From: Botryllus schlosseri
Taxonomy: Eukaryota
Length of the DNA stretch: 64,000 nucleotides
Assembly (NCBI GenBank): GCA_051294905.1
Contig: CM119372.1
Location: 10,976,001-11,040,000 of the forward strand
Direction: 5' to 3'
Numbering within the stretch: the first letter of the stretch is position 1; each line of letters opens with the position of its first letter. This document shows positions 1-64,000 of this stretch, piece after piece. A model generated the notes under the pieces. It saw only the letters and a program-made list of their open reading frames with translations, was not told the origin of the DNA and searched no databases. A program made the position numbers and the translations under genes.

Positions 1-3000
1 GTTTCCGAAGTTAAGGTTCATTCCGCCCATACCCATGTTTGCGAAGAGGTCGCCGTATTGTCCTTTGCCTCCGTCGGTGGTGACATCAACTGCAAGATCG
101 CTATCGACGTGTGCGTCAGCGATGGCGAGAGTGTTGTCTGCTACATCGACTTCGACGCCGTGACCGCCAGAATGATCACCGTCCACATTGACGCCGAGTC
201 CCATTGGGCCCATGGCGAATTGGAATCCGTTGTTTGCGTTGGCGTGTGCAATAGCATCACCGCTTCCGTAGTGAGGTCCTCCGGTTGCGATTGCTTTAGC
301 AGCGGCGTTGTTTCCGAAGTTAAGGTTAATTCCGCCCATACCCATGTTTGCGAAGAGGTCGCCGTATTGTCCTTTGCCTCCGTCGGTGGTGACATCAACT
401 GCAAGATCGCTATCGACGTGTGCGTCAGCGATGGCGAGAGTGTTGTCTGCTACATCGACTTCGACGCCGTGATCGCCTGAATGATCACCGTCCACATTGA
501 CGCCGAGTCCCATTGGGCCCATGGCGAATTGGAATCCGTTGTTTGCGTTGGCGTGTGCAATAGCATCACCGCTTCCGTAGTGAGGTCCTCCGGTTGCGAT
601 TGCTTTAGCAGCGGCGTTGTTTCCGAAGTTAAGGTTAATTCCGCCCATACCCATGTTTGCGAAGAGGTCGCCGTATTGTCCTTTGCCTCCGTCGGTGGTG
701 ACATCAACTGCAAGATCGCTATCGACGTGTGCGTCAGCGATGGCGAGAGTGTTGTCTGCTACATCGACTTCGACGCCGTGACCGCCAGAATGATCACCGT
801 CCACATTGACGCCGAGTCCCATTGGGCCCATGGCGAATTGGAATCCGTTGTTTGCGTTGGCGTGTGCAATAGCATCACCGCTTCCGTAGTGAGGTCCTCC
901 GGTTGCGATTGCTTTAGCAGCGGCGTTGTTTCCGAAGTTAAGGTTAATTCCGCCCATACCCATGTTTGCGAAGAGGTCGCCGTATTGTCCTTTGCCTCCG
1001 TCGGTGGTGACATCAACTGCAAGATCGCTATCGACGTGTGCGTCAGCGATGGCGAGAGTGTTGTCTGCTACATCGACTTCGACGCCGTGACCGCCAGAAT
1101 GATCACCGTCCACATTGACGCCGAGTCCCATTGGGCCCATGGCGAATTGGAATCCGTTGTTTGCGTTGGCGTGTGCAATAGCATCACCGCTTCCGTAGTG
1201 AGGTCCTCCGGTTGCGATTGCTTTAGCAGCGGCGTTGTTTCCGAAGTTAAGGTTAATTCCGCCCATACCCATGTTTGCGAAGAGGTCGCCGTATTGTCCT
1301 TTGCCTCCGTCGGTGGTGACATCAACTGCAAGATCGCTATCGACGTGTGCGTCAGCGATGGCGAGAGTGTTGTCTGCTACATCGACTTCGACGCCGTGAC
1401 CGCCAGAATGATCACCGTCCACATTGACGCCGAGTCCCATTGGGCCCATGGCGAATTGGAATCCGTTGTTTGCGTTGGCGTGTGCAATAGCATCACCGCT
1501 TCCGTAGTGAGGTCCTCCGGTTGCGATTGCTTTAGCAGCGGCGTTGTTTCCGAAGTTAAGGTTAATTCCGCCCATACCCATGTTTGCGAAGAGGTCGCCG
1601 TATTGTCCTTTGCCTCCGTCGGTGGTGACATCAACTGCAAGATCGCTATCGACGTGTGCGTCAGCGATGGCGAGAGTGTTGTCTGCTACATCGACTTCGA
1701 CGCCGTGACCGCCAGAATGATCACCGTCCACATTGACGCCGAGTCCCATTGGGCCCATGGCGAATTGGAATCTGTTGTTTGCGTTGGCGTGTGCAATAGC
1801 ATCACCGCTTCCGTAGTGAGGTCCTCCGGTTGCGATTGCTTTAGCAGCGGCGTTGTTTCCGAAGTTAAGGTTAATTCCGCCCATACCCATGTTTGCGAAG
1901 AGGTCGCCGTATTGTCCTTTGCCTCCGTCGGTGGTGACATCAACTGCAAGATCGCTATCGACGTGTGCGTCAGCGATGGCGAGAGTGTTGTCTGCTACAT
2001 CGACTTCGACGCCGTGATCGCCTGAATGATCACCGTCCACATTGACGCCGAGTCCCATTGGGCCCATGGCGAATTGGAATCCGTTGTTTGCGTTGGCGTG
2101 TGCAATAGCATCACCGCTTCCGTAGTGAGGTCCTCCGGTTGCAATTGCTTTAGCAGCGGCGTTGTTTCCGAAGTTAAGGTTAATTCCGCCCATACCCATG
2201 TTTGCGAAGAGGTCGCCGTATTGTCCTTTGCCTCCGTCGGTGGTGACATCAACTGCAAGATCGCTATCGACGTGTGCGTCAGCGATGGCGAGAGTGTTGT
2301 CTGCTACATCGACTTCGACGCCGTGACCGCCAGAATGATCACCGTCCACATTGACGCCGAGTCCCATTGGGCCCATGGCGAATTGGAATCCGTTGTTTGC
2401 GTTGGCGTGTGCAATAGCATCACCGCTTCCGTAGTGAGGTCCTCCGGTTGCGATTGCTTTAGCAGCGGCGTTGTTTCCGAAGTTAAGGTTAATTCCGCCC
2501 ATACCCATGTTTGCGAAGAGGTCGCCGTATTGTCCTTTGCCTCCGTCGGTGGTGACATCAACTGCAAGATCGCTATCGACGTGTGCGTCAGCGATGGCGA
2601 GAGTGTTGTCTGCTACATCGACTTCGACGCCGTGACCGCCAGAATGATCACCGTCCACATTGACGCCGAGTCCCATTGGGCCCATGGCGAATTGGAATCC
2701 GTTGTTTGCGTTGGCGTGTGCAATAGCATCACCGCTTCCGTAGTGAGGTCCTCCGGTTGCGATTGCTTTAGCAGCGGCGTTGTTTCCGAAGTTAAGGTTA
2801 ATTCCGCCCATACCCATGTTTGCGAAGAGGTCGCCGTATTGTCCTTCGCCTCCGTCGGTGGTGACATCAACTGCAAGATCGCTATCGACGTGTGCGTCAG
2901 CGATGGCGAGAGTGTTGTCTGCTACATCGACTTCGACGCCGTGACCGCCAGAATGATCACCGTCCACATTGACGCCGAGTCCCATTGGGCCCATGGCGAA

Positions 3001-6000
3001 TTGGAATCCGTTGTTTGCGTTGGCGTGTGCAATAGCATCACCGCTTCCGTAGTGAGGTCCTCCGGTTGCGATTGCTTTAGCAGCGGCGTTGTTTCCGAAG
3101 TTAAGGTTAATTCCGCCCATACCCATGTTTGCGAAGAGGTCGCCGTGTTGTCCTTTGCCTCCGTCGGTGGTGACATCAACTGCAAGATCGCTATCGACGT
3201 GTGCGTCAGCGATGGCGAGAGTGTTGTCTGCTACATCGACTTCGACGCCGTGACCGCCAGAATGATCACCGTCCACATTGACGCCGAGCCCCATTGGGCC
3301 CATGGCGAATTGGAATCCGTTGTTTGCGTTGGCGTGTGCAATAGCATCACCGCTTCCGTAGTGAGGTCCTCCGGTTGCGATTGCTTTAGCAGCGGCGTTG
3401 TTTCCGAAGTTAAGGTTAATTCCGCCCATACCCATGTTTGCGAAGAGGTCGCCGTATTGTCCTTTGCCTCCGTCGGTGGTGACATCAACTGCAAGATCGC
3501 TATCGACGTGTGCGTCAGCGATGGCGAGAGTGTTGTCTGCTACATCGACTTCGACGCCGTGACCGCCAGAATGATCACCGTCCACATTGACGCCGAGTCC
3601 CATTGGGCCCATGGCGAATTGGAATCCGTTGTTTGCGTTGGCGTGTGCAATAGCATCACCGCTTCCGTAGTGAGGTCCTCCGGTTGCAATTGCTTTAGCA
3701 GCGGCGTTGTTTCCGAAGTTAAGGTTAATTCCGCCCATACCCATGTTTGCGAAGAGGTCGCCGTATTGTCCTTTGCCTCCGTCGGTGGTGACATCAACTG
3801 CAAGATCGCTATCGACGTGTGCGTCAGCGATGGCGAGAGTGTTGTCTGCTACATCGACTTCGACGCCGTGACCGCCAGAATGATCACCGTCCACATTGAC
3901 GCCGAGTCCCATTGGGCCCATGGCGAATTGGAATCCGTTGTTTGCGTTGGCGTGTGCAATAGCATCACCGCTTCCGTAGTGAGGTCCTCCGGTTGCGATT
4001 GCTTTAGCAGCGGCGTTGTTTCCGAAGTTAAGGTTAATTCCGCCCATACCCATGTTTGCGAAGAGGTCGCCGTATTGTCCTTTGCCTCCGTCGGTGGTGA
4101 CATCAACTGCAAGATCGCTATCGACGTGTGCGTCAGCGATGGCGAGAGTGTTGTCTGCTACATCGACTTCGACGCCGTGACCGCCAGAATGATCACCGTC
4201 CACATTGACGCCGAGTCCCATTGGGCCCATGGCGAATTGGAATCCGTTGTTTGCGTTGGCGTGTGCAATAGCATCACCGCTTCCGTAGTGAGGTCCTCCG
4301 GTTGCGATTGCTTTAGCAGCGGCGTTGTTTCCGAAGTTAAGGTTAATTCCGCCCATACCCATGTTTGCGAAGAGGTCGCCGTATTGTCCTTCGCCTCCGT
4401 CGGTGGTGACATCAACTGCAAGATCGCTATCGACGTGTGCGTCAGCGATGGCGAGAGTGTTGTCTGCTACATCGACTTCGACGCCGTGACCGCCAGAATG
4501 ATCACCGTCCACATTGACGCCGAGTCCCATTGGGCCCATGGCGAATTGGAATCCGTTGTTTGCGTTGGCGTGTGCAATAGCATCACCGCTTCCGTAGTGA
4601 GGTCCTCCGGTTGCGATTGCTTTAGCAGCGGCGTTGTTTCCGAAGTTAAGGTTAATTCCGCCCATACCCATGTTTGCGAAGAGGTCGCCGTGTTGTCCTT
4701 TGCCTCCGTCGGTGGTGACATCAACTGCAAGATCGCTATCGACGTGTGCGTCAGCGATGGCGAGAGTGTTGTCTGCTACATCGACTTCGACGCCGTGACC
4801 GCCAGAATGATCACCGTCCACATTGACGCCGAGCCCCATTGGGCCCATGGCGAATTGGAATCCGTTGTTTGCGTTGGCGTGTGCAATAGCATCACCGCTT
4901 CCGTAGTGAGGTCCTCCGGTTGCGATTGCTTTAGCAGCGGCGTTGTTTCCGAAGTTAAGGTTAATTCCGCCCATACCCATGTTTGCGAAGAGGTCGCCGT
5001 ATTGTCCTTTGCCTCCGTCGGTGGTGACATCAACTGCAAGATCGCTATCGACGTGTGCGTCAGCGATGGCGAGAGTGTTGTCTGCTACATCGACTTCGAC
5101 GCCGTGACCGCCAGAATGATCACCGTCCACATTGACGCCGAGTCCCATTGGGCCCATGGCGAATTGGAATCCGTTGTTTGCGTTGGCGTGTGCAATAGCA
5201 TCACCGCTTCCGTAGTGAGGTCCTCCGGTTGCGATTGCTTTAGCAGCGGCGTTGTTTCCGAAGTTAAGGTTAATTCCGCCCATACCCATGTTTGCGAAGA
5301 GGTCGCCGTATTGTCCTTTGCCTCCGTCGGTGGTGACATCAACTGCAAGATCGCTATCGACGTGTGCGTCAGCGATGGCGAGAGTGTTGTCTGCTACATC
5401 GACTTCGACGCCGTGACCGCCAGAATGATCACCGTCCACATTGACGCCGAGTCCCATTGGGCCCATGGCGAATTGGAATCCGTTGTTTGCGTTGGCGTGT
5501 GCAATAGCATCACCGCTTCCGTAGTGAGGTCCTCCGGTTGCGATTGCTTTAGCAGCGGCGTTGTTTCCGAAGTTAAGGTTAATTCCGCCCATACCCATGT
5601 TTGCGAAGAGGTCGCCGTATTGTCCTTTGCCTCCGTCGGTGGTGACATCAACTGCAAGATCGCTATCGACGTGTGCGTCAGCGATGGCGAGAGTGTTGTC
5701 TGCTACATCGACTTCGACGCCGTGACCGCCAGAATGATCACCGTCCACATTGACGCCGAGTCCCATTGGGCCCATGGCGAATTGGAATCCGTCGTTTGCG
5801 TTGGCGTGTGCAATAGCATCACCGCTTCCGTAGTGAGGTCCTCCGGTTGCGATTGCTTTAGCAGCGGCGTTGTTTCCGAAGTTAAGGTTAATTCCGCCCA
5901 TACCCATGTTTGCGAAGAGGTCGCCGTATTGTCCTTTGCCTCCGTCGGTGGTGACATCAACTGCAAGATCGCTATCGACGTGTGCGTCAGCGATGGCGAG

Positions 6001-9000
6001 AGTGTTGTCTGCTACATCGACTTCGACGCCGTGACCGCCAGAATGATCACCGTCCACATTGACGCCGAGTCCCATTGGGCCCATGGCGAATTGGAATCCG
6101 TTGTTTGCGTTGGCGTGTGCAATAGCATCACCGCTTCCGTAGTGAGGTCCTCCGGTTGCGATTGCTTTAGCAGCGGCGTTGTTTCCGAAGTTAAGGTTAA
6201 TTCCGCCCATACCCATGTTTGCGAAGAGGTCGCCGTATTGTCCTTTGCCTCCGTCGGTGGTGACATCAACTGCAAGATCGCTATCGACGTGTGCGTCAGC
6301 GATGGCGAGAGTGTTGTCTGCTACATCGACTTCGACGCCGTGACCGCCAGAATGATCACCGTCCACATTGACGCCGAGTCCCATTGGGCCCATGGCGAAT
6401 TGGAATCCGTTGTTTGCGTTGGCGTGTGCAATAGCATCACCGCTTCCGTAGTGAGGTCCTCCGGTTGCGATTGCTTTAGCAGCGGCGTTGTTTCCGAAGT
6501 TAAGGTTAATTCCGCCCATACCCATGTTTGCGAAGAGGTCGCCGTATTGTCCTTTGCCTCCGTCGGTGGTGACATCAACTGCAAGATCGCTATCGACGTG
6601 TGCGTCAGCGATGGCGAGAGTGTTGTCTGCTACATCGACTTCGACGCCGTGATCGCCTGAATGATCACCGTCCACATTGACGCCGAGTCCCATTGGGCCC
6701 ATGGCGAATTGGAATCCGTTGTTTGCGTTGGCGTGTGCAATAGCATCACCGCTTCCGTAGTGAGGTCCTCCGGTTGCGATTGCTTTAGCAGCGGCGTTGT
6801 TTCCGAAGTTAAGGTTAATTCCGCCCATACCCATGTTTGCGAAGAGGTCGCCGTATTGTCCTTTGCCTCCGTCGGTGGTGACATCAACTGCAAGATCGCT
6901 ATCGACGTGTGCGTCAGCGATGGCGAGAGTGTTGTCTGCTACATCGACTTCGACGCCGTGACCGCCAGAATGATCACCGTCCACATTGACGCCGAGTCCC
7001 ATTGGGCCCATGGCGAATTGGAATCCGTTGTTTGCGTTGGCGTGTGCAATAGCATCACCGCTTCCGTAGTGAGGTCCTCCGGTTGCGATTGCTTTAGCAG
7101 CGGCGTTGTTTCCGAAGTTAAGGTTAATTCCGCCCATACCCATGTTTGCGAAGAGGTCGCCGTATTGTCCTTTGCCTCCGTCGGTGGTGACATCAACTGC
7201 AAGATCGCTATCGACGTGTGCGTCAGCGATGGCGAGAGTGTTGTCTGCTACATCGACTTCGACGCCGTGACCGCCAGAATGATCACCGTCCACATTGACG
7301 CCGAGTCCCATTGGGCCCATGGCGAATTGGAATCCGTTGTTTGCGTTGGCGTGTGCAATAGCATCACCGCTTCCGTAGTGAGGTCCTCCGGTTGCGATTG
7401 CTTTAGCAGCGGCGTTGTTTCCGAAGTTAAGGTTAATTCCGCCCATACCCATGTTTGCGAAGAGGTCGCCGTATTGTCCTTTGCCTCCGTCGGTGGTGAC
7501 ATCAACTGCAAGATCGCTATCGACGTGTGCGTCAGCGATGGCGAGAGTGTTGTCTGCTACATCGACTTCGACGCCGTGACCGCCAGAATGATCACCGTCC
7601 ACATTGACGCCGAGTCCCATTGGGCCCATGGCGAATTGGAATCCGTTGTTTGCGTTGGCGTGTGCAATAGCATCACCGCTTCCGTAGTGAGGTCCTCCGG
7701 TTGCGATTGCTTTAGCAGCGGCGTTGTTTCCGAAGTTAAGGTTAATTCCGCCCATACCCATGTTTGCGAAGAGGTCGCCGTATTGTCCTTTGCCTCCGTC
7801 GGTGGTGACATCAACTGCAAGATCGCTATCGACGTGTGCGTCAGCGATGGCGAGAGTGTTGTCTGCTACATCGACTTCGACGCCGTGACCGCCAGAATGA
7901 TCACCGTCCACATTGACGCCGAGTCCCATTGGGCCCATGGCGAATTGGAATCCGTTGTTTGCGTTGGCGTGTGCAATAGCATCACCGCTTCCGTAGTGAG
8001 GTCCTCCGGTTGCGATTGCTTTAGCAGCGGCGTTGTTTCCGAAGTTAAGGTTAATTCCGCCCATACCCATGTTTGCGAAGAGGTCGCCGTATTGTCCTTT
8101 GCCTCCGTCGGTGGTGACATCAACTGCAAGATCGCTATCGACGTGTGCGTCAGCGATGGCGAGAGTGTTGTCTGCTACATCGACTTCGACGCCGTGACCG
8201 CCAGAATGATCACCGTCCACATTGACGCCGAGTCCCATTGGGCCCATGGCGAATTGGAATCCGTTGTTTGCGTTGGCGTGTGCAATAGCATCACCGCTTC
8301 CGTAGTGAGGTCCTCCGGTTGCGATTGCTTTAGCAGCGGCGTTGTTTCCGAAGTTAAGGTTAATTCCGCCCATACCCATGTTTGCGAAGAGGTCGCCGTA
8401 TTGTCCTTTGCCTCCGTCGGTGGTGACATCAACTGCAAGATCGCTATCGACGTGTGCGTCAGCGATGGCGAGAGTGTTGTCTGCTACATCGACTTCGACG
8501 CCGTGACCGCCAGAATGATCACCGTCCACATTGACGCCGAGTCCCATTGGGCCCATGGCGAATTGGAATCCGTTGTTTGCGTTGGCGTGTGCAATAGCAT
8601 CACCGCTTCCGTAGTGAGGTCCTCCGGTTGCGATTGCTTTAGCAGCGGCGTTGTTTCCGAAGTTAAGGTTAATTCCGCCCATACCCATGTTTGCGAAGAG
8701 GTCGCCGTATTGTCCTTTGCCTCCGTCGGTGGTGACATCAACTGCAAGATCGCTATCGACGTGTGCGTCAGCGATGGCGAGAGTGTTGTCTGCTACATCG
8801 ACTTCGACGCCGTGACCGCCAGAATGATCACCGTCCACATTGACGCCGAGTCCCATTGGGCCCATGGCGAATTGGAATCCGTTGTTTGCGTTGGCGTGTG
8901 CAATAGCATCACCGCTTCCGTAGTGAGGTCCTCCGGTTGCGATTGCTTTAGCAGCGGCGTTGTTTCCGAAGTTAAGGTTAATTCCGCCCATACCCATGTT

Positions 9001-12000
9001 TGCGAAGAGGTCGCCGTATTGTCCTTTGCCTCCGTCGGTGGTGACATCAACTGCAAGATCGCAATCGACGTGTGCGTCAGCGATGGCGAGAGTGTTGTCT
9101 GCTACATCGACTTCGACGCCGTGACCGCCAGAATGATCACCGTCCACATTGACGCCGAGTCCCATTGGGCCCATGGCGAATTGGAATCCGTTGTTTGCGT
9201 TGGCGTGTGCAATAGCATCACCGCTTCCGTAGTGAGGTCCTCCGGTTGCGATTGCTTTAGCAGCGGCGTTGTTTCCGAAGTTAAGGTTAATTCCGCCCAT
9301 ACCCATGTTTGCGAAGAGGTCGCCGTATTGTCCTTTGCCTCCGTCGGTGGTGACATCAACTGCAAGATCGCTATCGACGTGTGCGTCAGCGATGGCGAGA
9401 GTGTTGTCTGCTACATCGACTTCGACGCCGTGATCGCCTGAATGATCACCGTCCACATTGACGCCGAGTCCCATTGGGCCCATGGCGAATTGGAATCCGT
9501 TGTTTGCGTTGGCGTGTGCAATAGCATCACCGCTTCCGTAGTGAGGTCCTCCGGTTGCGATTGCTTTAGCAGCGGCGTTGTTTCCGAAGTTAAGGTTAAT
9601 TCCGCCCATACCCATGTTTGCGAAGAGGTCGCCGTATTGTCCTTTGCCTCCGTCGGTGGTGACATCAACTGCAAGATCGCTATCGACGTGTGCGTCAGCG
9701 ATGGCGAGAGTGTTGTCTGCTACATCGACTTCGACGCCGTGACCGCCAGAATGATCACCGTCCACATTGACGCCGAGTCCCATTGGGCCCATGGCGAATT
9801 GGAATCCGTTGTTTGCGCTGGCGTGTGCAATAGCATCACCGCTTCCGTAGTGAGGTCCTCCGGTTGCGATTGCTTTAGCAGCGGCGATGTTTCCGAAGTT
9901 AAGGTTAATTCCGCCCATACCCATGTTTGCGAAGAGGTCGCCGTATTGTCCTTTGCCTCCGTCGGTGGTGACATCAACTGCAAGATCGCTATCGACGTGT
10001 GCGTCAGCGATGGCGAGAGTGTTGTCTGCTACATCGACTTCGACGCCATGACCGCCAGAATGATCACCGTCCACATTGACGCCGAGTCCCATTGGGCCCA
10101 TGGCGAATTGGAATCCGTTGTTTGCGTTGGCGTGTGCAATAGCATCACCGCTTCCGTAGTGAGGTCCTCCGGTTGCGATTGCTTTAGCAGCGGCGTTGTT
10201 TCCGAAGTTAAGGTTAATTCCGCCCATACCCATGTTTGCGAAGAGGTCGCCGTATTGTCCTTTGCCTCCGTCGGTGGTGACATCAACTGCAAGATCGCTA
10301 TCGACGTGTGCGTCAGCGATGGCGAGAGTGTTGTCTGCTACATCGACTTCGACGCCGTGACCGCCAGAATGATCACCGTCCACATTGACGCCGAGTCCCA
10401 TTGGGCCCATGGCGAATTGGAATCCGTTGTTTGCGTTGGCGTGTGCAATAGCATCACCGCTTCCGTAGTGAGGTCCTCCGGTTGCGATTGCTTTAGCAGC
10501 GGCGTTGTTTCCGAAGTTAAGGTTAATTCCGCCCATACCCATGTTTGCGAAGAGGTCGCCGTATTGTCCTTTGCCTCCGTCGGTGGTGACATCAACTGCA
10601 AGATCGCTATCGACGTGTGCGTCAGCGATGGCGAGAGTGTTGTCTGCTACATCGACTTCGACGCCGTGACCGCCAGAATGATCACCGTCCACATTGACGC
10701 CGAGTCCCATTGGGCCCATGGCGAATTGGAATCCGTTGTTTGCGTTGGCGTGTGCAATAGCATCACCGCTTCCGTAGTGAGGTCCTCCGGTTGCGATTGC
10801 TTTAGCAGCGGCGTTGTTTCCGAAGTTAAGGTTAATTCCGCCCATACCCATGTTTGCCAAGAGGTCGCCGTATTGTCCTTTGCCTCCGTCGGTGGTGACA
10901 TCAACTGCAAGATCGCTATCGACGTGTGCGTCAGCGATGGCGAGAGTGTTGTCTGCTACATCGACTTCGACGCCGTGACCGCCAGAATGATCACCGTCCA
11001 CATTGACGCCGAGTCCCATTGGGCCCATGGCGAATTGGAATCCGTTGTTTGCGTTGGCGTGTGCAATAGCATCACCGCTTCCGTAGTGAGGTCCTCCGGT
11101 TGCGATTGCTTTAGCAGCGGCGTTGTTTCCGAAGTTAAGGTTAATTCCGCCCATACCCATGTTTGCGAAGAGGTCGCCGTATTGTCCTTTGCCTCCGTCG
11201 GTGGTGACATCAACTGCAAGATCGCTATCGACGTGTGCGTCAGCGATGGCGAGAGTGTTGTCTGCTACATCGACTTCGACGCCGTGACCGCCAGAATGAT
11301 CACCGTCCACATTGACGCCGAGTCCCATTGGGCCCATGGCGAATTGGAATCCGTTGTTTGCGTTGGCGTGTGCAATAGCATCACCGCTTCCGTAGTGAGG
11401 TCCTCCGGTTGCGATTGCTTTAGCAGCGGCGTTGTTTCCGAAGTTAATGTTAATTCCGCCCATACCCATGTTTGCGAAGAGGTCGCCGTATTGTCCTTTG
11501 CCTCCGTCGGTGGTGACATCAACTGCAAGATCGCTATCGACGTGTGCGTCAGCGATGGCAAGAGTGTTGTCTGCTACATCGACTTCGACGCCGTGACCGC
11601 CAGAATGATCACCGTCCACATTGACGCCGAGTCCCATTGGGCCCATGGCGAATTGGAATCCGTTGTTTGCGTTGGCGTGTGCAATAGCATCACCGCTTCC
11701 GTAGTGAGGTCCTCCGGTTGCGATTGCTTTAGCAGCGGCGTTGTTTCCGAAGTTAAGGTTAATTCCGCCCATACCCATGTTTGCGAAGAGGTCGCCGTAT
11801 TGTCCTTTGCCTCCGTCGGTGGTGACATCAACTGCAAGATCGCTATCGACGTGTGCGTCAGCGATGGCGAGAGTGTTGTCTGCTACATCGACTTCGACGC
11901 CGTGACCGCCAGAATGATCACCGTCCACATTGACGCCGAGTCCCATTGGGCCCATGGCGAATTGGAATCCGTTGTTTGCGTTGGCGTGTGCAATAGCATC

Positions 12001-53000: not shown

Positions 53001-56000
53001 GACCGCCAGAATGATCACCGTCCACGTTGACGGCGAGTCCCATTGGGCCCATGCCGAATTGGAATCCGTTGTTTGCGTTGGCGTGAGCAATAGCGTCACC
53101 GCTTCCGTAGTGAGGTCCTCCGGCTGCGATCGCTTTAGCAGCGGCGTTGTTTGCGAAGTTAAGGTTAATTCCGCCCATACCCATGCTTGCGAAGAGGTCG
53201 CCGTATTGTCCTTTGCCTCCTTCGGTGGTGACATCAACTGCAAGATCGCTGTTGACGTGTGCGTCAGCGATAGCGAGAGTGTTGTCTGCTACATCGACAT
53301 CGACGCCGTGACCGCCAGAATGATCACCGTCCACGTTGACGGCGAGTCCCATTGGGCCCATGCCGAATTGGAATCCGTTGTTTGCGTTGGCGTGAGCAAT
53401 AGCGTCACCGCTTCCGTAGTGAGGTCCTCCGGCCGCCATCGCTTTAGCAGCGGCGTTGTTTGCGAAGTTAAGGTTAATTCCGCCCATACCCATGCTTGCG
53501 AAGAGATCGCCGTATTGTCCTTTGCCACCTTCGGTGGTGACATCAACTATAAGATCGCTGTTGACGTGTGCGTCAGCGATAGCGAGAGTGTTGTCTGCTA
53601 CATCGACATCGACGCCGTGACCGCCAGAATGATCACCGTCCACGTTGACGGCGAGTCCCATTGGGCCCATGCCGAATTGGAATCCGTTGTTTGCGTTGGC
53701 GTGAGCAATAGCGTCACCGCTTCCGTAGTGAGGTCCTCCGGCTGCGATCGCTTTAGCAGCGGCGTTGTTTGCGAAGTTAAGGTTAATTCCGCCCATACCC
53801 ATGCTTGCGAAGAGGTCGCCGTATTGTCCTTTGCCTCCTTCGGTGGTGACATCAACTGCAAGATCGCTGTTGACGTGTGCGTCAGCGATAGCGAGAGTGT
53901 TGTCTGCTACATCGACATCGACGCCGTGACCGCCAGAATGATCACCGTCCACGTTGACGGCGAGTCCCATTGGGCCCATGCCGAATTGGAATCCGTTGTT
54001 TGCGTTGGCGTGAGCAATAGCGTCACCGCTTCCGTAGTGAGGTCCTCCGGCTGCGATCGCTTTAGCAGCGGCGTTGTTTGCGAAGTTAAGGTTAATTCCG
54101 CCCATACCCATGCTTGCGAAGAGGTCGCCGTATTTTCCTTTGCCTCCTTCGGTGGTGACATCAACTGCAAGATCGCTGTTGACGTGTGCGTCAGCGATAG
54201 CGAGAGTGTTGTCTGCTACATCGACATCGACGCCGTGACCGCCAGAATGATCACCGTCCACGTTGACGGCGAGTCCCATTGGGCCCATGCCGAATTGGAA
54301 TCCGTTGTTTGCGTTGGCGTGAGCAATAGCGTCACCGCTTCCGTAGTGAGGTCCTCCGGCTGCGATCGCTTTAGCAGCGGCGTTGTTTGCGAAGTTAAGG
54401 TTAATTCCGCCCATACCCATGCTTGCGAAGAGGTCGCCGTATTGTCCTTTGCCTCCTTCGGTGGTGACATCAACTGCAAGATCGCTGTTGACGTGTGCGT
54501 CAGCGATAGCGAGAGTGTTGTCTGCTACATCGACATCGACGCCGTGACCGCCAGAATGATCACCGTCCACGTTGACGGCGAGTCCCATTGGGCCCATGCC
54601 GAATTGGAATCCGTTGTTTGCGTTGGCGTGAGCAATAGCGTCACCGCTTCCGTAGTGAGGTCCTCCGGCTGCGATCGCTTTAGCAGCGGCGTTGTTTGCG
54701 AAGTTAAGGTTAATTCCGCCCATACCCATGCTTGCAAAGAGGTCGCCGTATTGTCCTTTGCCTCCTTCGGTGGTGACATCAACTGCAAGATCGCTGTTGA
54801 CGTGTGCGTCAGCGATAGCGAGAGTGTTGTCTGCTACATCGACATCGACGCCGTGACCGCCAGAATGATCACCGTCCACGTTGACGGCGAGTCCCATTGG
54901 GCCCATGCCGAATTGGAATCCGTTGTTTGCGTTGGCGTGAGCAATAGCGTCACCGCTTCCGTAGTGAGGTCCTCCGGCTGCGATCGCTTTAGCAGCGGCG
55001 TTGTTTGCGAAGTTAAGGTTAATTCCGCCCATACCCATGCTTGCGAAGAGGTCGCCGTATTGTCCTTTGCCTCCTTCGGTGGTGACATCAACTGCAAGAT
55101 CGCTGTTGACGTGTGCGTCAGCGATAGCGAGAGTGTTGTCTGCTACATCGACATCGACGCCGTGACCGCCAGAATGATCACCGTCCACGTTGACGGCGAG
55201 TCCCATTGGGCCCATGCCGAATTGGAATCCGTTGTTTGCGTTGGCGTGAGCAATAGCGTCACCGCTTCCGTAGTGAGGTCCTCCGGCTGCAATCGCTTTA
55301 GCAGCGGCGTTGTTTGCGAAGTTAAGGTTAATTCCGCCCATACCCATGCTTGCGAAGAGGTCGCCGTATTGTCCTTTGCCTCCTTCGGTGGTGACATCAA
55401 CTGCAAGATCGCTGTTGACGTGTGCGTCAGCGATAGCGAGAGTGTTGTCTGCTACATCGACATCGACGCCGTGACCGCCAGAATGATCACCGTCCACGTT
55501 GACGGCGAGTCCCATTGGGCCCATGCCGAATTGGAATCCGTTGTTTGCGTTGGCGTGAGCAATAGCGTCACCGCTTCCGTAGTGAGGTCCTCCGGCTGCG
55601 ATCGCTTTAGCAGCGGCGTTGTTTGCGAAGTTAAGGTTAATTCCGCCCATACCCATGCTTGCGAAGAGGTCGCCGTATTGTCCTTTGCCTCCTTCGGTGG
55701 TGACATCAACTGCAAGATCGCTGTTGACGTGTGCGTCAGCGATAGCGAGAGTGTTGTCTGCTACATCGACATCGACGCCGTGACCGCCAGAATGATCACC
55801 GTCCACGTTGACGGCGAGTCCCATTGGGCCCATGCCGAATTGGAATCCGTTGTTTGCGTTGGCGTGAGCAATAGCGTCACCGCTTCCGTAGTGAGGTCCT
55901 CCGGCTGCGATCGCTTTAGCAGCGGCGTTGTTTGCGAAGTTAAGGTTAATTCCGCCCATACCCATGCTTGCGAAGAGGTCGCCGTATTGTCCTTTGCCTC

Positions 56001-59000
56001 CTTCGGTGGTGACATCAACTGCAAGATCGCTGTTGACGTGTGCGTCAGCGATAGCGAGAGTGTTGTCTGCTACATCGACATCGACGCCGTGACCGCCAGA
56101 ATGATCACCGTCCACGTTGACGGCGAGTCCCATTGGGCCCATGCCGAATTGGAATCCGTTGTTTGCGTTGGCGTGAGCAATAGCGTCACCGCTTCCGTAG
56201 TGAGGTCCTCCGGCTGCGATCGCTTTAGCAGCGGCGTTGTTTGCGAAGTTAAGGTTAATTCCGCCCATACCCATGCTTGCAAAGAGGTCGCCGTATTGTC
56301 CTTTGCCTCCTTCGGTGGTGACATCAACTGCAAGATCGCTGTTGACGTGTGCGTCAGCGATAGCGAGAGTGTTGTCTGCTACATCGACATCGACGCCGTG
56401 ACCGCCAGAATGATCACCGTCCACGTTGACGGCGAGTCCCATTGGGCCCATGCCGAATTGGAATCCGTTGTTTGCGTTGGCGTGAGCAATAGCGTCACCG
56501 CTTCCGTAGTGAGGTCCTCCGGCTGCGATCGCTTTAGCAGCGGCGTTGTTTGCGAAGTTAAGGTTAATTCCGCCCATACCCATGCTTGCGAAGAGGTCGC
56601 CGTATTGTCCTTTGCCTCCTTCGGTGGTGACATCAACTGCAAGATCGCTGTTGACGTGTGCGTCAGCGATAGCGAGAGTGTTGTCTGCTACATCGACATC
56701 GACGCCGTGACCGCCAGAATGATCACCGTCCACGTTGACGGCGAGTCCCATTGGGCCCATGCCGAATTGGAATCCGTTGTTTGCGTTGGCGTGAGCAATA
56801 GCGTCACCGCTTCCGTAGTGAGGTCCTCCGGCTGCAATCGCTTTAGCAGCGGCGTTGTTTGCGAAGTTAAGGTTAATTCCGCCCATACCCATGCTTGCGA
56901 AGAGGTCGCCGTATTGTCCTTTGCCTCCTTCGGTGGTGACATCAACTGCAAGATCGCTGTTGACGTGTGCGTCAGCGATAGCGAGAGTGTTGTCTGCTAC
57001 ATCGACATCGACGCCGTGACCGCCAGAATGATCACCGTCCACGTTGACGGCGAGTCCCATTGGGCCCATGCCGAATTGGAATCCGTTGTTTGCGTTGGCG
57101 TGAGCAATAGCGTCACCGCTTCCGTAGTGAGGTCCTCCGGCTGCCATCGCTTTAGCAGCGGCGTTGTTTGCGAAGTTAAGGTTAATTCCGCCCATACCCA
57201 TACTTGCGAAGAGGTCGCCGTATTGTCCTTTGCCTCCTTCGGTGGTGACATCAACTGCAAGATCGCTGTTGACGTGTGCGTCAGCGATAGCGAGAGTGTT
57301 GTCTGCTACATCGACATCGACGCCGTGACCGCCAGAATGATCACCGTCCACGTTGACGGCGAGTCCCATTGGGCCCATGCCGAATTGGAATCCGTTGTTT
57401 GCGTTGGCGTGAGCAATAGCGTCACCGCTTCCGTAGTGAGGTCCTCCGGCTGCGATCGCTTTAGCAGCGGCGTTGTTTGCGAAGTTAAGGTTAATTCCGC
57501 CCATACCCATGCTTGCGAAGAGGTCGCCGTATTGTCCTTTGCCCCCTTCGGTGGTGACATCAACTGCAAGATCGCTGTTGACGTGTGCGTCAGCGATAGC
57601 GAGAGTGTTGTCTGCTACATCGACATCGACGCCGTGACCGCCAGAATGATCACCGTCCACGTTGACGGCGAGTCCCATTGGGCCCATGCCGAATTGGAAT
57701 CCGTTGTTTGCGTTGGCGTGAGCAATAGCGTCACCGCTTCCGTAGTGAGGTCCTCCGGCTGCGATCGCTTTAGCAGCGGCGTTGTTTGCGAAGTTAAGGT
57801 TAATTCCGCCCATACCCATGCTTGCGAAGAGGTCGCCGTATTGTCCTTTGCCTCCTTCGGTGGTGACATCAACTGCAAGATCGCTGTTGACGTGTGCGTC
57901 AGCGATAGCGAGAGTGTTGTCTGCTACATCGACATCGACGCCGTGACCGCCAGAATGATCACCGTCCACGTTGACGGCGAGTCCCATTGGGCCCATGCCG
58001 AATTGGAATCCGTTGTTTGCGTTGGCGTGAGCAATAGCGTCACCGCTTCCGTAGTGAGGTCCTCCGGCTGCGATCGCTTTAGCAGCGGCGTTGTTTGCGA
58101 AGTTAAGGTTAATTCCGCCCATACCCATGCTTGCGAAGAGGTCGCCGTATTGTCCTTTGCCTCCTTCGGTGGTGACATCAACTGCAAGATCGCTGTTGAC
58201 GTGTGCGTCAGCGATAGCGAGAGTGTTGTCTTCTACATCGACATCAACGCCGTGACCGCCAGAATGATCACCGTCCACGTTGACGGCGAGTCCCATTGGG
58301 CCCATGCCGAATTGGAATCCGTTGTTTGCGTTGGCGTGAGCAATAGCGTCACCGCTTCCGTAGTGAGGTCCTCCGGCCGCCATCGCTTTAGCAGCGGCGT
58401 TGTTTGCGAAGTTAAGGTTAATTTCGCCCATACCCATGCTTGCGAAGAGGTCGCCGTATTGTCCTTTGCCTCCTTCGGTGGTGACATCAACTGCAAGATC
58501 GCTGTTGACGTGTGCGTCAGCGATAGCGAGAGTGTTGTCTGCTACATCGACATCGACGCCGTGACCGCCAGAATGATCACCGTCCACGTTGACGGCGAGT
58601 CCCATTGGGCCCATGCCGAATTGGAATCCGTTGTTTGCGTTGGCGTGAGCAATAGCGTCACCGCTTCCGTAGTGAGGTCCTCCGGCTGCCATCGCTTTAG
58701 CAGCGGCGTTGTTTGCGAAGTTAAGGTTAATTCCGCCCATACCCATGCTTGCGAAGAGGTCGCCGTATTGTCCTTTGCCTCCTTCGGTGGTGACATCAAC
58801 TGCAAGATCGCTGTTGACGTGTGCGTCAGCGATAGCGAGAGTGTTGTCTGCTACATCGACATCGACGCCGTGACCGCCAGAATGATCACCGTCCACGTTG
58901 ACGGCGAGTCCCATTGGGCCCATGCCGAATTGGAATCCGTTGTTTGCGTTGGCGTGAGCAATAGCGTCACCGCTTCCATAGTGAGGTCCTCCGGCAGCGA

Positions 59001-62000
59001 TCGCTTTAGCAGCGGCGTTGTTTGCGAAGTTAAGGTTAATTCCGCCCATACCCATGCTTGCGAAGAGGTCGCCGTATTGTCCTTTGCCTCCTTCGGTGGT
59101 GACATCAACTGCAAGATCGCTGTTGACGTGTGCGTCAGCGATAGCGAGAGTGTTGTCTGCTACATCGACATCGACGCCGTGACCGCCAGAATGATCACCG
59201 TCCACGTTGACGGCGAGTCCCATTGGGCCCATGCCGAATTGGAATCCGTTGTTTGCGTTGGCGTGAGCAATAGCGTCACCGCTTCCGTAGTGAGGTCCTC
59301 CGGCTGCGATCGCTTTAGCAGCGGCGTTGTTTGCGAAGTTAAGGTTAATTCCGCCCATACCCATGCTTGCGAAGAGGTCGCCGTATTGTCCTTTGCCTCC
59401 TTCGGTGGTGACATCAACTGCAAGATCGCTGTTGACGTGTGCGTCAGCGATAGCGAGAGTGTTGTCTGCTACATCGACATCGACGCCGTGACCGCCAGAA
59501 TGATCACCGTCCACGTTGACGGCGAGTCCCATTGGGCCCATGCCGAATTGGAATCCGTTGTTTGCGTTGGCGTGAGCAATAGCGTCACCGCTTCCGTAGT
59601 GAGGTCCTCCGGCTGCAATCGCTTTAGCAGCGGCGTTGTTTGCGAAGTTAAGGTTAATTCCGCCCATACCCATGCTTGCGAAGAGGTCGCCGTATTGTCC
59701 TTTGCCTCCTTCGGTGGTGACATCAACTGCAAGATCGCTGTTGACGTGTGCGTCAGCGATAGCGAGAGTGTTGTCTGCTACATCGACATCGACGCCGTGA
59801 CCGCCAGAATGATCACCGTCCACGTTGACGGCGAGTCCCATTGGGCCCATGCCGAATTGGAATCCGTTGTTTGCGTTGGCGTGAGCAATAGCGTCACCGC
59901 TTCCGTAGTGAGGTCCTCCGGCTGCCATCGCTTTAGCAGCGGCGTTGTTTGCGAAGTTAAGGTTAATTCCGCCCATACCCATACTTGCGAAGAGGTCGCC
60001 GTATTGTCCTTTGCCTCCTTCGGTGGTGACATCAACTGCAAGATCGCTGTTGACGTGTGCGTCAGCGATAGCGAGAGTGTTGTCTGCTACATCGACATCG
60101 ACGCCGTGACCGCCAGAATGATCACCGTCCACGTTGACGGCGAGTCCCATTGGGCCCATGCCGAATTGGAATCCGTTGTTTGCGTTGGCGTGAGCAATAG
60201 CGTCACCGCTTCCGTAGTGAGGTCCTCCGGCTGCGATCGCTTTAGCAGCGGCGTTGTTTGCGAAGTTAAGGTTAATTCCGCCCATACCCATGCTTGCGAA
60301 GAGGTCGCCGTATTGTCCTTTGCCTCCTTCGGTGGTGACATCAACTGCAAGATCGCTGTTGACGTGTGCGTCAGCGATAGCGAGAGTGTTGTCTGCTACA
60401 TCGACATCGACGCCGTGACCGCCAGAATGATCACCGTCCACGTTGACGGCGAGTCCCATTGGGCCCATGCCGAATTGGAATCCGTTGTTTGCGTTGGCGT
60501 GAGCAATAGCGTCACCGCTTCCGTAGTGAGGTCCTCCGGCTGCGATCGCTTTAGCAGCGGCGTTGTTTGCGAAGTTAAGGTTAATTCCGCCCATACCCAT
60601 GCTTGCGAAGAGGTCGCCGTATTGTCCTTTGCCTCCTTCGGTGGTGACATCAACTGCAAGATCGCTGTTGACGTGTGCGTCAGCGATAGCGAGAGTGTTG
60701 TCTGCTACATCGACATCGACGCCGTGACCGCCAGAATGATCACCGTCCACGTTGACGGCGAGTCCCATTGGGCCCATGCCGAATTGGAATCCGTTGTTTG
60801 CGTTGGCGTGAGCAATAGCGTCACCGCTTCCGTAGTGAGGTCCTCCGGCTGCGATCGCTTTAGCAGCGGCGTTGTTTGCGAAGTTAAGGTTAATTCCGCC
60901 CATACCCATGCTTGCGAAGAGGTCGCCGTATTGTCCTTTGCCTCCTTCGGTGGTGACATCAACTGCAAGATCGCTGTTGACGTGTGCGTCAGCGATAGCG
61001 AGAGTGTTGTCTTCTACATCGACATCAACGCCGTGACCGCCAGAATGATCACCGTCCACGTTGACGGCGAGTCCCATTGGGCCCATGCCGAATTGGAATC
61101 CGTTGTTTGCGTTGGCGTGAGCAATAGCGTCACCGCTTCCGTAGTGAGGTCCTCCGGCCGCCATCGCTTTAGCAGCGGCGTTGTTTGCGAAGTTAAGGTT
61201 AATTTCGCCCATACCCATGCTTGCGAAGAGGTCGCCGTATTGTCCTTTGCCTCCTTCGGTGGTGACATCAACTGCAAGATCGCTGTTGACGTGTGCGTCA
61301 GCGATAGCGAGAGTGTTGTCTGCTACATCGACATCGACGCCGTGACCGCCAGAATGATCACCGTCCACGTTGACGGCGAGTCCCATTGGGCCCATGCCGA
61401 ATTGGAATCCGTTGTTTGCGTTGGCGTGAGCAATAGCGTCACCGCTTCCGTAGTGAGGTCCTCCGGCTGCCATCGCTTTAGCAGCGGCGTTGTTTGCGAA
61501 GTTAAGGTTAATTCCGCCCATACCCATGCTTGCGAAGAGGTCGCCGTATTGTCCTTTGCCTCCTTCGGTGGTGACATCAACTGCAAGATCGCTGTTGACG
61601 TGTGCGTCAGCGATAGCGAGAGTGTTGTCTGCTACATCGACATCGACGCCGTGACCGCCAGAATGATCACCGTCCACGTTGACGGCGAGTCCCATTGGGC
61701 CCATGCCGAATTGGAATCCGTTGTTTGCGTTGGCGTGAGCAATAGCGTCACCGCTTCCATAGTGAGGTCCTCCGGCAGCGATCGCTTTAGCAGCGGCGTT
61801 GTTTGCGAAGTTAAGGTTAATTCCGCCCATACCCATGCTTGCGAAGAGGTCGCCGTATTGTCCTTTGCCTCCTTCGGTGGTGACATCAACTGCAAGATCG
61901 CTGTTGACGTGTGCGTCAGCGATAGCGAGAGTGTTGTCTGCTACATCGACATCGACGCCGTGACCGCCAGAATGATCACCGTCCACGTTGACGGCGAGTC

Positions 62001-63999: not shown

Positions 64000-64000
64000 G
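46751..64000. repeat. Homogeneous type-B' block (~56 units, B plus D69N, gctgttgac; N-terminal side of the visible protein)
   Basis: gctgttgac replaces gctgtcgac from 46762 to the last copy at 63757. No A-type units are present. Confidence 0.95.

Follow-up and report, generated by a model that had tools for sequence, protein, structure and literature searches.

The giant exon and its gene

The window analysed here, a stretch of 64,000 nucleotides from Botryllus schlosseri (C2:10976001-11040000, minus-strand frame; eukaryotic host genome of 495 Mb), falls entirely within a single protein-coding exon of 107 kb in an animal gene. Window positions were obtained by subtracting 10976000 from the C2 coordinates. 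A single 309-bp array extended over window positions 1-64000 (207.1 copies, 98% matches, and 0% indels in TRF), which agreed with the approximately 207 units of 103 aa without indels reported in the initial annotation. When open ends were allowed in the ORF listing, a minus-strand ORF of 21,333 aa was found at 1..63999, and the earlier claim of a stop-free frame of at least 64 kb was thereby confirmed. The default listing contained plus-strand ORFs only, of up to 7,971 aa; the 21,333-aa ORF was missing from it, as had been remarked, because this ORF runs off both ends of the window.

With the flanks included, the stop-free minus-strand frame comprised 35,815 codons (C2:10954332-11061776). The giant exon was placed at C2:10954333-11061725 on the minus strand (about -21,667 to 85,725 of the window), which gave 107,393 nt, i.e., 35,797 codons plus 2 nt; its 3' limit was fixed by cDNA, and its 5' limit was inferred from the starts of homologues. 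The array proper (C2:10954434-11057639, minus strand, 103,206 bp) consisted of 334 units of 309 bp without an indel, and the 103-aa units were spaced at exact multiples of 103 throughout the window and flanks. Approximately 207 of the 334 units (roughly units 57-264 from the 5' end) occupied positions 1..64000 on the minus strand, with 57 more units on the 5' side up to C2:11057639 and 70 more on the 3' side down to C2:10954434. A single enormous exon had been anticipated for the case of eukaryotic DNA; the gene proved to be GT-AG spliced, and the exon measured 107 kb rather than 64 kb. The start and end of the protein had been expected right of 64000 and left of 1, respectively, where the flanks contained exon boundaries and not protein termini. 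The predicted product of this exon alone is approximately 35,800 residues and 3.5 MDa, in keeping with the titin-scale protein proposed earlier.

Three blocks of units were distinguished on the minus strand of the window. The 5' block, in which the 5' unit family predominated (46104..64000, units about 57-115), was 98-100% identical to the array consensus, and the tryptic peptide of this family ended in ...FASMGMGGINLNFANNAAAK. The mixed block (13968..46103, units about 116-218) contained both families in stretches, together with many singleton units and local higher-order duplications. The block in which the 3' unit family predominated began within 1..13967 (units about 219-264, 95-96% identical to the consensus, tryptic peptide ending in ...FANMGMGGINLNFGNNAAAK) and extended past the window to the end of the array. 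The two 26-residue tryptic peptides put forward in the initial annotation were present in the translations of the two commonest units, whose computed weights of 10,098 and 10,142 Da matched the earlier hand count of ~10.1 kDa. The unit was acidic (pI about 4.3) and rich in Gly, Ala, Asp, Asn, and His. Ser, Thr, and Pro together made up 9 of the 103 residues (Pro, 2 of 103), five His residues occurred per unit, and hydrophobic and Asp stretches alternated along it.

Relatives of the unit were sought with four units. Only sub-threshold noise and no family were obtained in Pfam, no relatives were returned by word-indexed searches at near and longer lengths, and the ESM Atlas gave no usable match for the unit. 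The exhaustive phmmer search against 1.84 billion representatives yielded one weak match, P0003 (E 4.5e-5), a bacterial surface-adhesin-like repeat protein; this match was judged compositional or spurious and was set aside because the unit profile failed to recover it. AlphaFold2 was applied to three units with a 6-row alignment, and the pLDDT was 34.5, which gave no usable model. Neither Pfam nor AlphaFold2 thus gave evidence of a folded domain in the unit.

The part of the exon 5' of the array (C2:11057640-11061725, minus strand) held four modules. Each paired a Cys-rich VWC-like domain of 139-141 aa with a segment that resembles a degenerate unit, and these segments measured 227, 169, 171, and 168 aa. 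The acceptor of the giant exon (TTACAG/CCT, C2:11061725, minus strand) was inferred from the starts of four homologues. Three VWD-C8-TIL sets, with pieces above the Pfam cut-offs, lay in order at C2:11064026-11073724, and further 5' on the same strand there are putative exons of Sushi-like type and one that may encode a signal peptide. On the 3' side, a fifth Cys-rich domain was interrupted by the donor AA/GTAAGT after its first half (C2:10954333-10954433, minus strand), and the next exon, which starts at C2:10954264 on the minus strand, completed this domain in register. The downstream minus-strand exons reached C2:10946490 and contained two VWC domains, VWD and C8, Cys-rich exons, another two VWC domains, and a terminal cystine knot.

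The Pfam scan of the flanks comprised 76 stop-free minus-strand pieces from ~24 kb on each side, none shorter than 40 aa and all containing four or more Cys. Four VWD, four C8, four TIL, and two VWC domains were above the cut-offs, with two more VWC domains below them; the scores in the 3' flank were 54.2 bits for VWD, 32.3 for C8, 30.6 and 31.7 for VWC, and 46.4 for Cys_knot. No TIL was found after the fourth VWD in the flanking exons scanned, and LDL-receptor class A and thrombospondin type-1 domains, which are features of SCO-spondin, had no match in the 76 pieces from ~24 kb on each side. VWA was likewise without a Pfam match in the four units and in the initial 1,400 aa of the open frame. 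The ~140-aa Cys-rich module itself had no Pfam match, and a PDB sequence-profile search with it returned nothing. It aligned with a neighbouring Pfam-positive VWC exon in hhalign (E 0.0018, probability 15%), and its AF2 model reached a pLDDT of 69.5, for which Foldseek returned nothing at E<=0.001. The best four of 48,161 VIA alignments of this module were to the vWC of CCN3, the vWC of collagen IIA, VWF C4, and the C-terminus of MUC2 (Z 3.1-3.5), so that the module is weakly indicated to be VWC-like. The locus is very probably a gene of ~128 kb on the minus strand, with a gel-forming-mucin/VWF domain scaffold around an acidic repeat centre.

Of the 8,000 candidates that were scored, four proved to be homologues (E 1e-240 to 1e-254, 35-38% identity). 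All four began at the 5' boundary of the giant exon, and three also ended at its 3' boundary. They carried 0-4 units per segment versus 334 in the B. schlosseri array, and their inter-domain segments stepped by ~103 aa (65/170/269/376/475). A profile seeded from array units detected nine stretches in the gene's own 5' segments, then eight in P0007 and two in P0005, with no match among 75 shuffled decoys or in the bacterial control; in BLASTP, the units gave a weak match to P0007 (E 1e-4) and a non-significant one to P0005 (E 0.16). Judged from sequence, the 103-aa unit together with the ~140-aa Cys-rich domain is a conserved module of the central region. In the fifth module, the unit would have been multiplied to 334 tandem copies via unequal crossing-over.

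RNA evidence and the assembled array

Splicing was evaluated in run X1, an independent 2016 cDNA data set. Of a 526-nt X1 contig, 303 nt belonged to the last units and the other 223 nt to the exon that follows, and the 68-nt GT-AG intron 3' of the giant exon (C2:10954265-10954332, minus strand) was removed in this cDNA. The intron sat exactly where homology had predicted it, and the exon join was in frame. Eight further introns were confirmed by X1 contigs and/or raw reads of run X18, and the depth of the X1 cDNA contigs in the intron bins was zero. The giant exon lies beside introns of 56-68 nt. The X1 word depth was 4,964-6,091 on full units versus ~21 on the adjoining single-copy exon, an excess of ~235-290-fold, which is a ratio and not a copy number; most units are therefore taken to be present in RNA.

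The unit bins of X18 were ~3-8 times deeper than the single-copy exons (7-12 versus 1-3.5), not hundreds of times. The X18 library carries a template-switch oligo, and for this reason priming with oligo-dT is probable, in which case an mRNA of more than 100 kb would be poorly covered. A 3'-bias problem of this kind is raised for PKZILLA in the part of that preprint consulted (bioRxiv 10.1101/2024.01.29.577497). Five X18 reads spanned a unit-to-unit junction (299 back plus 10 letters, i.e., 309). Run X20 gave 10 reads at the locus, whereas X22 gave none and was uninformative.

The gene and its coding repeat may be real while the assembled number of 334 copies departs substantially from the true one because the near-identical array was collapsed or expanded, in which case the true exon would be much shorter or much longer. 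The units match the consensus at 95-100%, the X18 excess is small, and the PKZILLA authors encountered a coding tandem repeat that had collapsed during assembly, according to the part of their preprint consulted (bioRxiv 10.1101/2024.01.29.577497); against these points stand the 145 distinct units among the 334, 102 of which are singletons, a longest exact self-match of only 3,419 bp inside the array, and the large X1 excess. The unique markers are dense in the array, and reads of at least 10 kb are therefore placeable uniquely. Moreover, no second copy of the giant-exon locus was found elsewhere in the assembly. A substantially wrong copy number is regarded as improbable.

The exon may also be transcribed without the full array being made as one chain, either because most units are spliced out internally, from a site in one unit to the equivalent site in another, or because a recent runaway allele yields little or no product. 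The read counts differed widely from run to run (0, 10, and 122), the relatives function with 0-4 units per segment, and X18 has only a small surplus of unit reads, all of which would suit this explanation. It is opposed by the 334 of 334 units that stay in frame without a stop and with a synonymous excess, and by the ~235-290-fold excess in X1. Furthermore, the X18 reads passed from unit to unit in the usual way, and none of the joints reported within the repeat part of the stretch covered skipped any units; this stretch contained only about two units, for which reason long skips would be invisible in it. Interrupted or absent production of the full chain is thus considered an outside chance, comparable to that of a wrong copy number.

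Coding evidence for the minus-strand frame

The openness of the frame was compared with shuffled units. At least one open frame was kept by 10.5% of 5,000 unit shuffles, and two open frames were kept by 0.42%, as in the real unit. The open frame alone is weak and not significant evidence, because 10.5% of the shuffles match it and a plus-strand frame is open as well. The substitutions were more informative about the reading frame. The analysis covered 223 distinct substitutions in 331 core units, and these were distributed over codon positions 1/2/3 as 62/58/103 in the minus frame (chi-square p=2.4e-4). Of the possible synonymous changes, 86 of 215 were seen, versus 136 of 695 for non-synonymous changes (odds ratio 2.7, p=4e-9), and neither a stop nor an indel occurred among the 223 distinct variants in this frame. 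The open plus-strand frame, in contrast, had no synonymous bias (odds ratio 0.88, p=0.52) and five stop-creating variants. The dN/dS-like ratio of the units was ~0.49, which indicates that the constraint on the unit is moderate only. The array frame passed unbroken into the Cys-rich modules at both ends. The coding status of the minus-strand frame is supported by the codon bias, the in-frame junctions, the spliced cDNA, and the homologues.

Dispersed copies of the unit were located at C2:15.15-15.43 Mb and 11.52 Mb, and they contained stops and frameshifts. Membership in the class of non-coding satellites was rejected on the zero indels, the zero stops, the codon-position bias, and the synonymous excess. 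A satellite that lacks stops in one frame by chance, for which the open shuffled units, the open opposite strand of the consensus, the lack of a Pfam family and of relatives in the four-unit sequence searches, and the decayed copies dispersed on the chromosome could be cited, is already contradicted and has a negligible probability, since the codon-position and synonymous bias is confined to the minus frame, no indel occurs over 103 kb, the frame continues into Cys-rich domains on both sides, spliced cDNA links the array to the next exon, and four collinear homologues share the exon limits.

Predicted product and known systems

The explanation that accounts best for these results is a 107,393-nt exon in a gene with a mucin/VWF scaffold, whose amplified unit would form the core of a secreted polymer, and its probability as a whole is estimated at roughly 0.8. 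Sequence features predict a secreted protein that would be at least titin-sized. The complete product would contain ~38-39 thousand aa in all, with a mass of ~3.8 MDa and a pI of about 4.3, and it would enter the secretory pathway. Dimers would form through the cystine knot and multimers through the N-terminal D assemblies, as in mucins and VWF, and disulfide-linked extracellular polymers would result. The very long, strongly acidic repeat of non-glycosylated type may then serve as the body of a fibre, gel, or glue. An extracellular fibre, adhesive, or matrix protein had been proposed in the initial annotation; the extracellular Cys-rich flanks in frame agree with the location, whereas the role is deduced from the domain types. 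That the product is a secreted, polymer-forming structural material appears reasonably probable. The alternation of hydrophobic and Asp stretches and the five His per unit would bind divalent cations, and this is a doubtful proposal as the specific mechanism. The most extended form of the proposal, namely a fully translated, secreted chain of ~38-39 thousand residues (~3.8 MDa) that the D assemblies and the cystine knot link into polymers, which form an acidic fibre, glue, or gel crosslinked by cations, with a 100-fold lineage-specific unit amplification giving rise to a new biomaterial, is advanced tentatively, at slightly less than even odds.

The layout was compared with that of gel-forming mucins of the MUC2/MUC5AC/MUC5B type, which, in the part of the source consulted, share the (VWD-C8-TIL)x3 start, the repeats in one large exon, and the subsequent VWD-C8, VWC, and cystine knot (PMC4948705). 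Their PTS domain has at least 40% Ser+Thr and usually more than 5% Pro, as stated in the same part (Lang et al., 2016, PMC4948705). The B. schlosseri repeat is acidic and not of the PTS type (Ser+Thr ~7%, Pro ~2%). As in mucins, Cys-rich domains break the repeat region in the way CysD does, and the repeat number is species-variable. The interspersed Cys domains are VWC-like here and not WxxW CysD, the exon is ~107 kb versus 7-19 kb for the MUC4 repeat exons in the literature extracts considered, and the fourth VWD is not followed by a TIL in the exons scanned. VWF has the same D1-D2-D'D3 ... D4 - C domains - cystine knot layout, on which its tail-to-tail dimerisation and head-to-head multimerisation depend. 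VWF carries VWA domains from D3 to D4; none was found in the units and the start of the open frame scanned here, and the 103-aa repeat occupies the centre.

A second design was compared by analogy. The ice-binding adhesin of Marinomonas primoryensis is extracellular and uses a long run of near-identical ~104-residue repeats as an extender; it is bacterial and type-1-secreted, with Ig-like repeats. The comparison with this adhesin in the initial annotation holds only as a design analogy, but the gene here is of a different kind, an intron-containing animal gene with VWD, C8, TIL, and cystine-knot domains. Its GT-AG introns are removed in cDNA, and it resides in a 495-Mb genome. Membership among the bacterial RTX/BIg giant adhesins of the MpIBP type was ruled out by the introns and the eukaryotic genome.

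Mlig-ap2 of Macrostomum lignano comprises 14,794 aa with 21 repeats of 255 aa and 25 of 221 aa, and the combination VWD-C8-TIL is described as common in the glues of limpet, sea star, sea urchin, and flatworm in the portion of the source consulted (PMC8621496). Like the product predicted here, Mlig-ap2, an aquatic bioadhesive protein, is a secreted giant with VWD/C8/TIL around a core that consists almost wholly of long near-identical non-PTS repeats; it differs by its LDL and TSP-1 domains, and the same portion mentions no cystine knot for it (PMC8621496). Compared by description, the repeat lengths are unrelated, and the predicted B. schlosseri protein is strongly acidic and exceeds Mlig-ap2 in length more than twofold.

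When the open-access literature was searched for exons of similar size and for animal proteins exceeding titin, the only relevant results were PKZILLA and a preprint about giant genes of bacteria. In the part of the PKZILLA preprint consulted, PKZILLA-1 has 45,212 aa (4.7 MDa) and PKZILLA-2 has 3.2 MDa, and titin, previously the largest known protein, is exceeded by PKZILLA-1 by ~25% (bioRxiv 10.1101/2024.01.29.577497). The PKZILLAs are described there as enzymes with 17 and 12 exons, whereas ~93% of the predicted protein here would come from one exon of near-identical repeats. Titin is intracellular and has hundreds of exons; the product here is predicted to be secreted. If fully translated, this product would be larger than titin and second to PKZILLA-1 among eukaryotic proteins in the literature examined, of which only parts were at hand for these giants, and the 107-kb exon would be the longest coding exon on record found in the open-access literature.

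If translated as assembled, a titin-class protein would come from the secretory pathway rather than the cytoplasm. The mRNA would exceed 115 kb, and at a typical rate of 5-6 residues per second its translation is estimated to take approximately two hours. The limits of exon definition would be tested by a 107-kb exon beside introns of 56-68 nt, and those of the ER and Golgi by a megadalton chain that has to be folded and assembled into disulfide-linked multimers. The case also illustrates how such genes escape notice: the default ORF listing hid this one and offered antisense ORFs, and repeat masking would probably hide it too. The 0-4 units per segment of the relatives versus 334 here provide a clean natural experiment on the effect of amplification on a secreted material. 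Furthermore, the unit, as an orphan acidic His-bearing module, could be of interest to biomaterials work.

Repeat array and open reading frame

The window was filled by one 309-bp tandem array (207.1 copies, 98% matches, no indels in Tandem Repeats Finder). When open ends were allowed in the ORF listing, the minus strand was open across positions 1-63999 (21,333 codons), and the reading frame through all units proposed in the initial annotation was thereby borne out. Its absence from the ORF track was explained by the default listing, which dropped this frame because it runs off both window ends and returned plus-strand ORFs only, none longer than 7,971 aa. The minus-strand translation of the unit was 103 aa and rich in Gly/Ala/Asp/Asn, and the plus-strand translation was Cys/Val/Ser-rich. 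The flanks were sampled and then fetched from the genome (495.5 Mb in 219 contigs), and the array continued past both window ends. After the flanks were joined in natural order, the stop-free minus-strand frame reached 35,815 codons (C2:10954332-11061776, where C2 is contig CM119372.1), and a separate genome search returned the identical 35,815-codon frame. The initial observation was real, and understated, and its interpretation was supported.

The array comprised 334 units without an indel (145 distinct at the nucleotide and 98 at the protein level), and the spacing of the 'GQY' landmarks was a multiple of 103 residues in 304 of 304 cases. One unit type predominated in the 5' third and another in the 3' third, with a mixture between them; the two commonest nucleotide units had 59 and 52 copies. 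Of the 334 units, 102 were unique, and the longest exact self-match measured 3,419 bp; therefore, long accurate reads could place the array.

Coding constraint between units

When the unit was shuffled 5,000 times, 10.5% of the shuffled sequences had at least one open frame; the real consensus unit had two, one per strand. An open frame is cheap in a tandem repeat, and the test must therefore use the variation between units. The 331 core units held 223 distinct substitutions relative to the consensus, distributed as 62/58/103 over minus-frame codon positions 1/2/3 (p = 2.4e-4). Synonymous changes were 86 of 215 possible, versus 136 of 695 for non-synonymous changes (odds ratio 2.7, p = 4e-9), and the lone would-be stop variant co-occurred with a second change and read TGG. 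In the same unit-variant test, the plus-strand open frame had no synonymous bias (odds ratio 0.88, p = 0.52), and five of its variants created stops. On the plus strand of the window (e.g., 12532-36447), antisense ORFs reached 7,971 and 7,409 aa because the reverse strand of the unit is also without stops in one frame.

Most dispersed copies of the unit, at 15.15-15.43 Mb and 11.52 Mb of C2, had their sense frame broken by stops and frameshifts; therefore, the unit sequence does decay when nothing keeps it in frame. These fragments (C2:15150425-15179152 and 15425501-15429990, L001-L008, and C2:11524797-11524898, L026; 73-91% nucleotide identity) could be gene copies that have decayed, or they could be satellite-like derivatives. 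They included arrays of a shorter sub-repeat of ~135 bp (about 46 aa), and two short stretches were still open (227 and 308 aa).

Exon boundaries, transcripts and size

The first ~1,310 residues of the frame lay outside the array and formed four modules, in each of which a degenerate, unit-like segment (227, 169, 171 and 168 aa in turn) preceded a Cys-rich domain of 139-141 aa with 20-23 cysteines; a partial unit linked the fourth module to the array. At its 3' end, the array gave way to a fifth Cys-rich domain, of which only the first half was present before the frame ended at a TAA within AA|GTAAGT. The second half was found 68 nt beyond by tblastn with the upstream modules as the query, and the spliced reading completed the domain in exact register with these modules. 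With the 5' modular part as the query, four homologues were obtained (P0004-P0007; 1,395-2,010 aa, E 1e-240 to 1e-254, 35-38% identity), none with a recorded name. All four started at '...QPGQV..CIRY.CWNN', as in the frame of the giant exon, and the acceptor was placed accordingly at TTACAG|CCT (C2:11061725). Three of the four also ended at an identical point inside the fifth Cys-rich domain; hence, the homologues are translations of a homologous exon of ~5-6 kb. The giant exon spanned C2:10954333-11061725 (107,393 nt, 35,797 codons + 2 nt).

Four sequencing runs were placed on C2:10950001-10955051 (L029:1-5051) at 90% likeness. The runs available were small ones in which 6-15% of the words were present, together with raw RNA runs of the same species label; no run containing the words was recorded as RNA. 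X1 (contigs, 2016) left the intron bins uncovered and showed eight joints; six had CT..AC ends, which are GT..AG on the minus strand, and the remaining two had 1-3 extra letters between their sides. The joint C2:10954333 -> 10954264 skipped 68 nt exactly at the predicted junction, and the 526-nt contig over it consisted of 303 nt of the last units and 223 nt of the next exon. The giant exon therefore belongs to a minus-strand transcript, and its splicing preserves the reading frame. In X18 (raw reads), 122 reads were placed, confirming six introns with 2-6 reads each, and five reads spanned an ordinary unit-to-unit junction; 10 reads were placed for X20 and 0 for X22.

The X1 word depth was 4,964-6,091 for full units versus 21.1 for the contig of the adjoining exon, and this 235-290-fold excess agrees with transcripts that carry hundreds of units each, though summed contig depth is not a copy number. 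The excess of unit reads in X18 was only ~3-8-fold. Because this library showed a template-switch oligo, our tentative explanation would be poor coverage of a >100-kb mRNA in that library type. For PKZILLA, the preprint describes poly-A RNA-seq coverage as negligible beyond ~10 kb from the 3' end (bioRxiv 10.1101/2024.01.29.577497). The cDNA joints gave introns of 56, 60, 64, 68, 125, 136, 314, 496 and 506 nt in C2:10950066-10954332, which are very short next to the 107-kb exon. In exons, RNA reads and cDNA contigs with the same species label diverged by up to ~10% from the assembly, and 53 of the 122 X18 reads were only 90-95% alike to it, which suggests that polymorphism is very high or that the populations are divergent.

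With its start set 28 residues inside the exon, the predicted exon product was 35,770 aa (3.52 MDa, pI 4.26), and the total with flanking exons was estimated at 38-39 thousand residues. Titin has ~34-36 thousand residues, and its largest exon is ~17 kb. The literature search returned a preprint on giant bacterial genes and no exon of comparable size (107 kb). The PKZILLA preprint gives 45,212 aa, 4.7 MDa and 17 exons for PKZILLA-1, which is ~25% larger than titin, the earlier record, and 3.2 MDa for PKZILLA-2 (bioRxiv 10.1101/2024.01.29.577497).

Unit history, domain scaffold and predicted role

A four-unit query gave nothing convincing among 5.8 billion or 1.84 billion proteins. The inter-domain segments (in aa) were 227, 169, 171, 168, then 66 + 334x103 in this gene; 236, 376, 170, 170, 269 in P0004; 230, 375, 170, 170, 475 in P0005; 224, 376, 170, 170, 269 in P0006; and 223, 169, 169, 65, 170 in P0007. 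They differed in steps of ~103 aa, and the unit is thus an old module of variable copy number, with 0-4 per segment in the homologues versus 334 here. A unit profile, seeded with array units and iterated on Cys-free segments, matched nine stretches in the gene's own 5' part, then eight in P0007 and two in P0005; 0 of 75 shuffled decoys matched, nor did the bacterial control. Direct BLASTP of the units was weak (E 1e-4 for P0007, 0.16 for P0005).

Stop-free minus-strand pieces were scanned with Pfam (76 in the larger scan; five pieces with matches in another), and all flanking domains were on the exon's own strand. Upstream, at C2:11064026-11073724 (minus), the series VWD-C8-TIL was present three times, with pieces scoring above the Pfam cut-offs. 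Downstream, at C2:10946490-10953475 (minus), the order was two VWC, VWD + C8, two VWC and a terminal cystine knot (Cys_knot, 46.4 bits); two VWC matches were above the cut-off and two below. The genome-wide VWD search placed 6 of its 94 matches at this locus. The scaffold is the same as that of VWF and of the gel-forming mucins MUC2/5AC/5B, outlined as (VWD-C8-TIL)x3-PTS-(VWD-C8-TIL) with VWC domains and a cystine knot (Lang et al., PMC4948705). The unit falls short of the PTS criterion of Lang et al., with S+T+P accounting for 9 of 103 residues, and the gene was therefore classed as mucin/VWF-architecture, not as a mucin. Acidic residues numbered 11-12 per unit and basic ones 2, with 5 His; the pI of the unit was 4.2-4.3. 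The gene has the mucin/VWF scaffold, in which an orphan acidic repeat has been amplified to titin-class, single-exon size. Inside the exon, Pfam gave no match for the Cys-rich module; hhalign against VWC gave a probability of 15%, and the best four of 48,161 structural alignments of its AlphaFold2 model (pLDDT 69.5) were VWC domains and the MUC2 C-terminus, at Z of only 3.1-3.5, so that the module is only weakly VWC-like.

Every recognisable domain of the gene is of an extracellular, disulfide-rich type. In mucins and VWF, the cystine knot forms tail-to-tail dimers and the D assemblies form head-to-head multimers; by analogy, the product should be a covalent extracellular polymer. AlphaFold2 gave no usable model of the repeat (pLDDT 34.5). 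Within the unit, hydrophobic and polar residues alternate strictly over some stretches, a pattern that would fit strands in which one face is acidic. The predicted chain carries ~3,800 net negative charges and ~1,700 histidines, and cation-dependent stiffening or cross-linking would be the preferred mechanism, judged from the sequence. Giant repeat cores of a non-mucin type, flanked by VWD-C8-TIL ends, recur in aquatic glues, among them Mlig-ap2 (14,794 aa) (PMC8621496). By this likeness, the predicted role is most likely that of a glue, fibre, tube or mucus-net material.

Putative Sushi/CCP-like Cys-rich exons were seen upstream of the first VWD (C2:11073759-11077535, minus; L031/L037), one by a Pfam match below the cut-off (18.6 bits) and the rest by eye. 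A hydrophobic stretch that starts with Met, at ~C2:11077636-11077725, could be a signal-peptide exon. About 5 kb further upstream than the outermost of these Sushi-like exons were pol-like retrotransposon ORFs with reverse transcriptase, RNase H and integrase domains (C2:11082559-11084696, minus; L037:7559-9696). A second VWD cluster on C2 (6748084-6758802, minus) held the genome's best VWD match (89.5 bits) and is presumably a separate multi-VWD gene.
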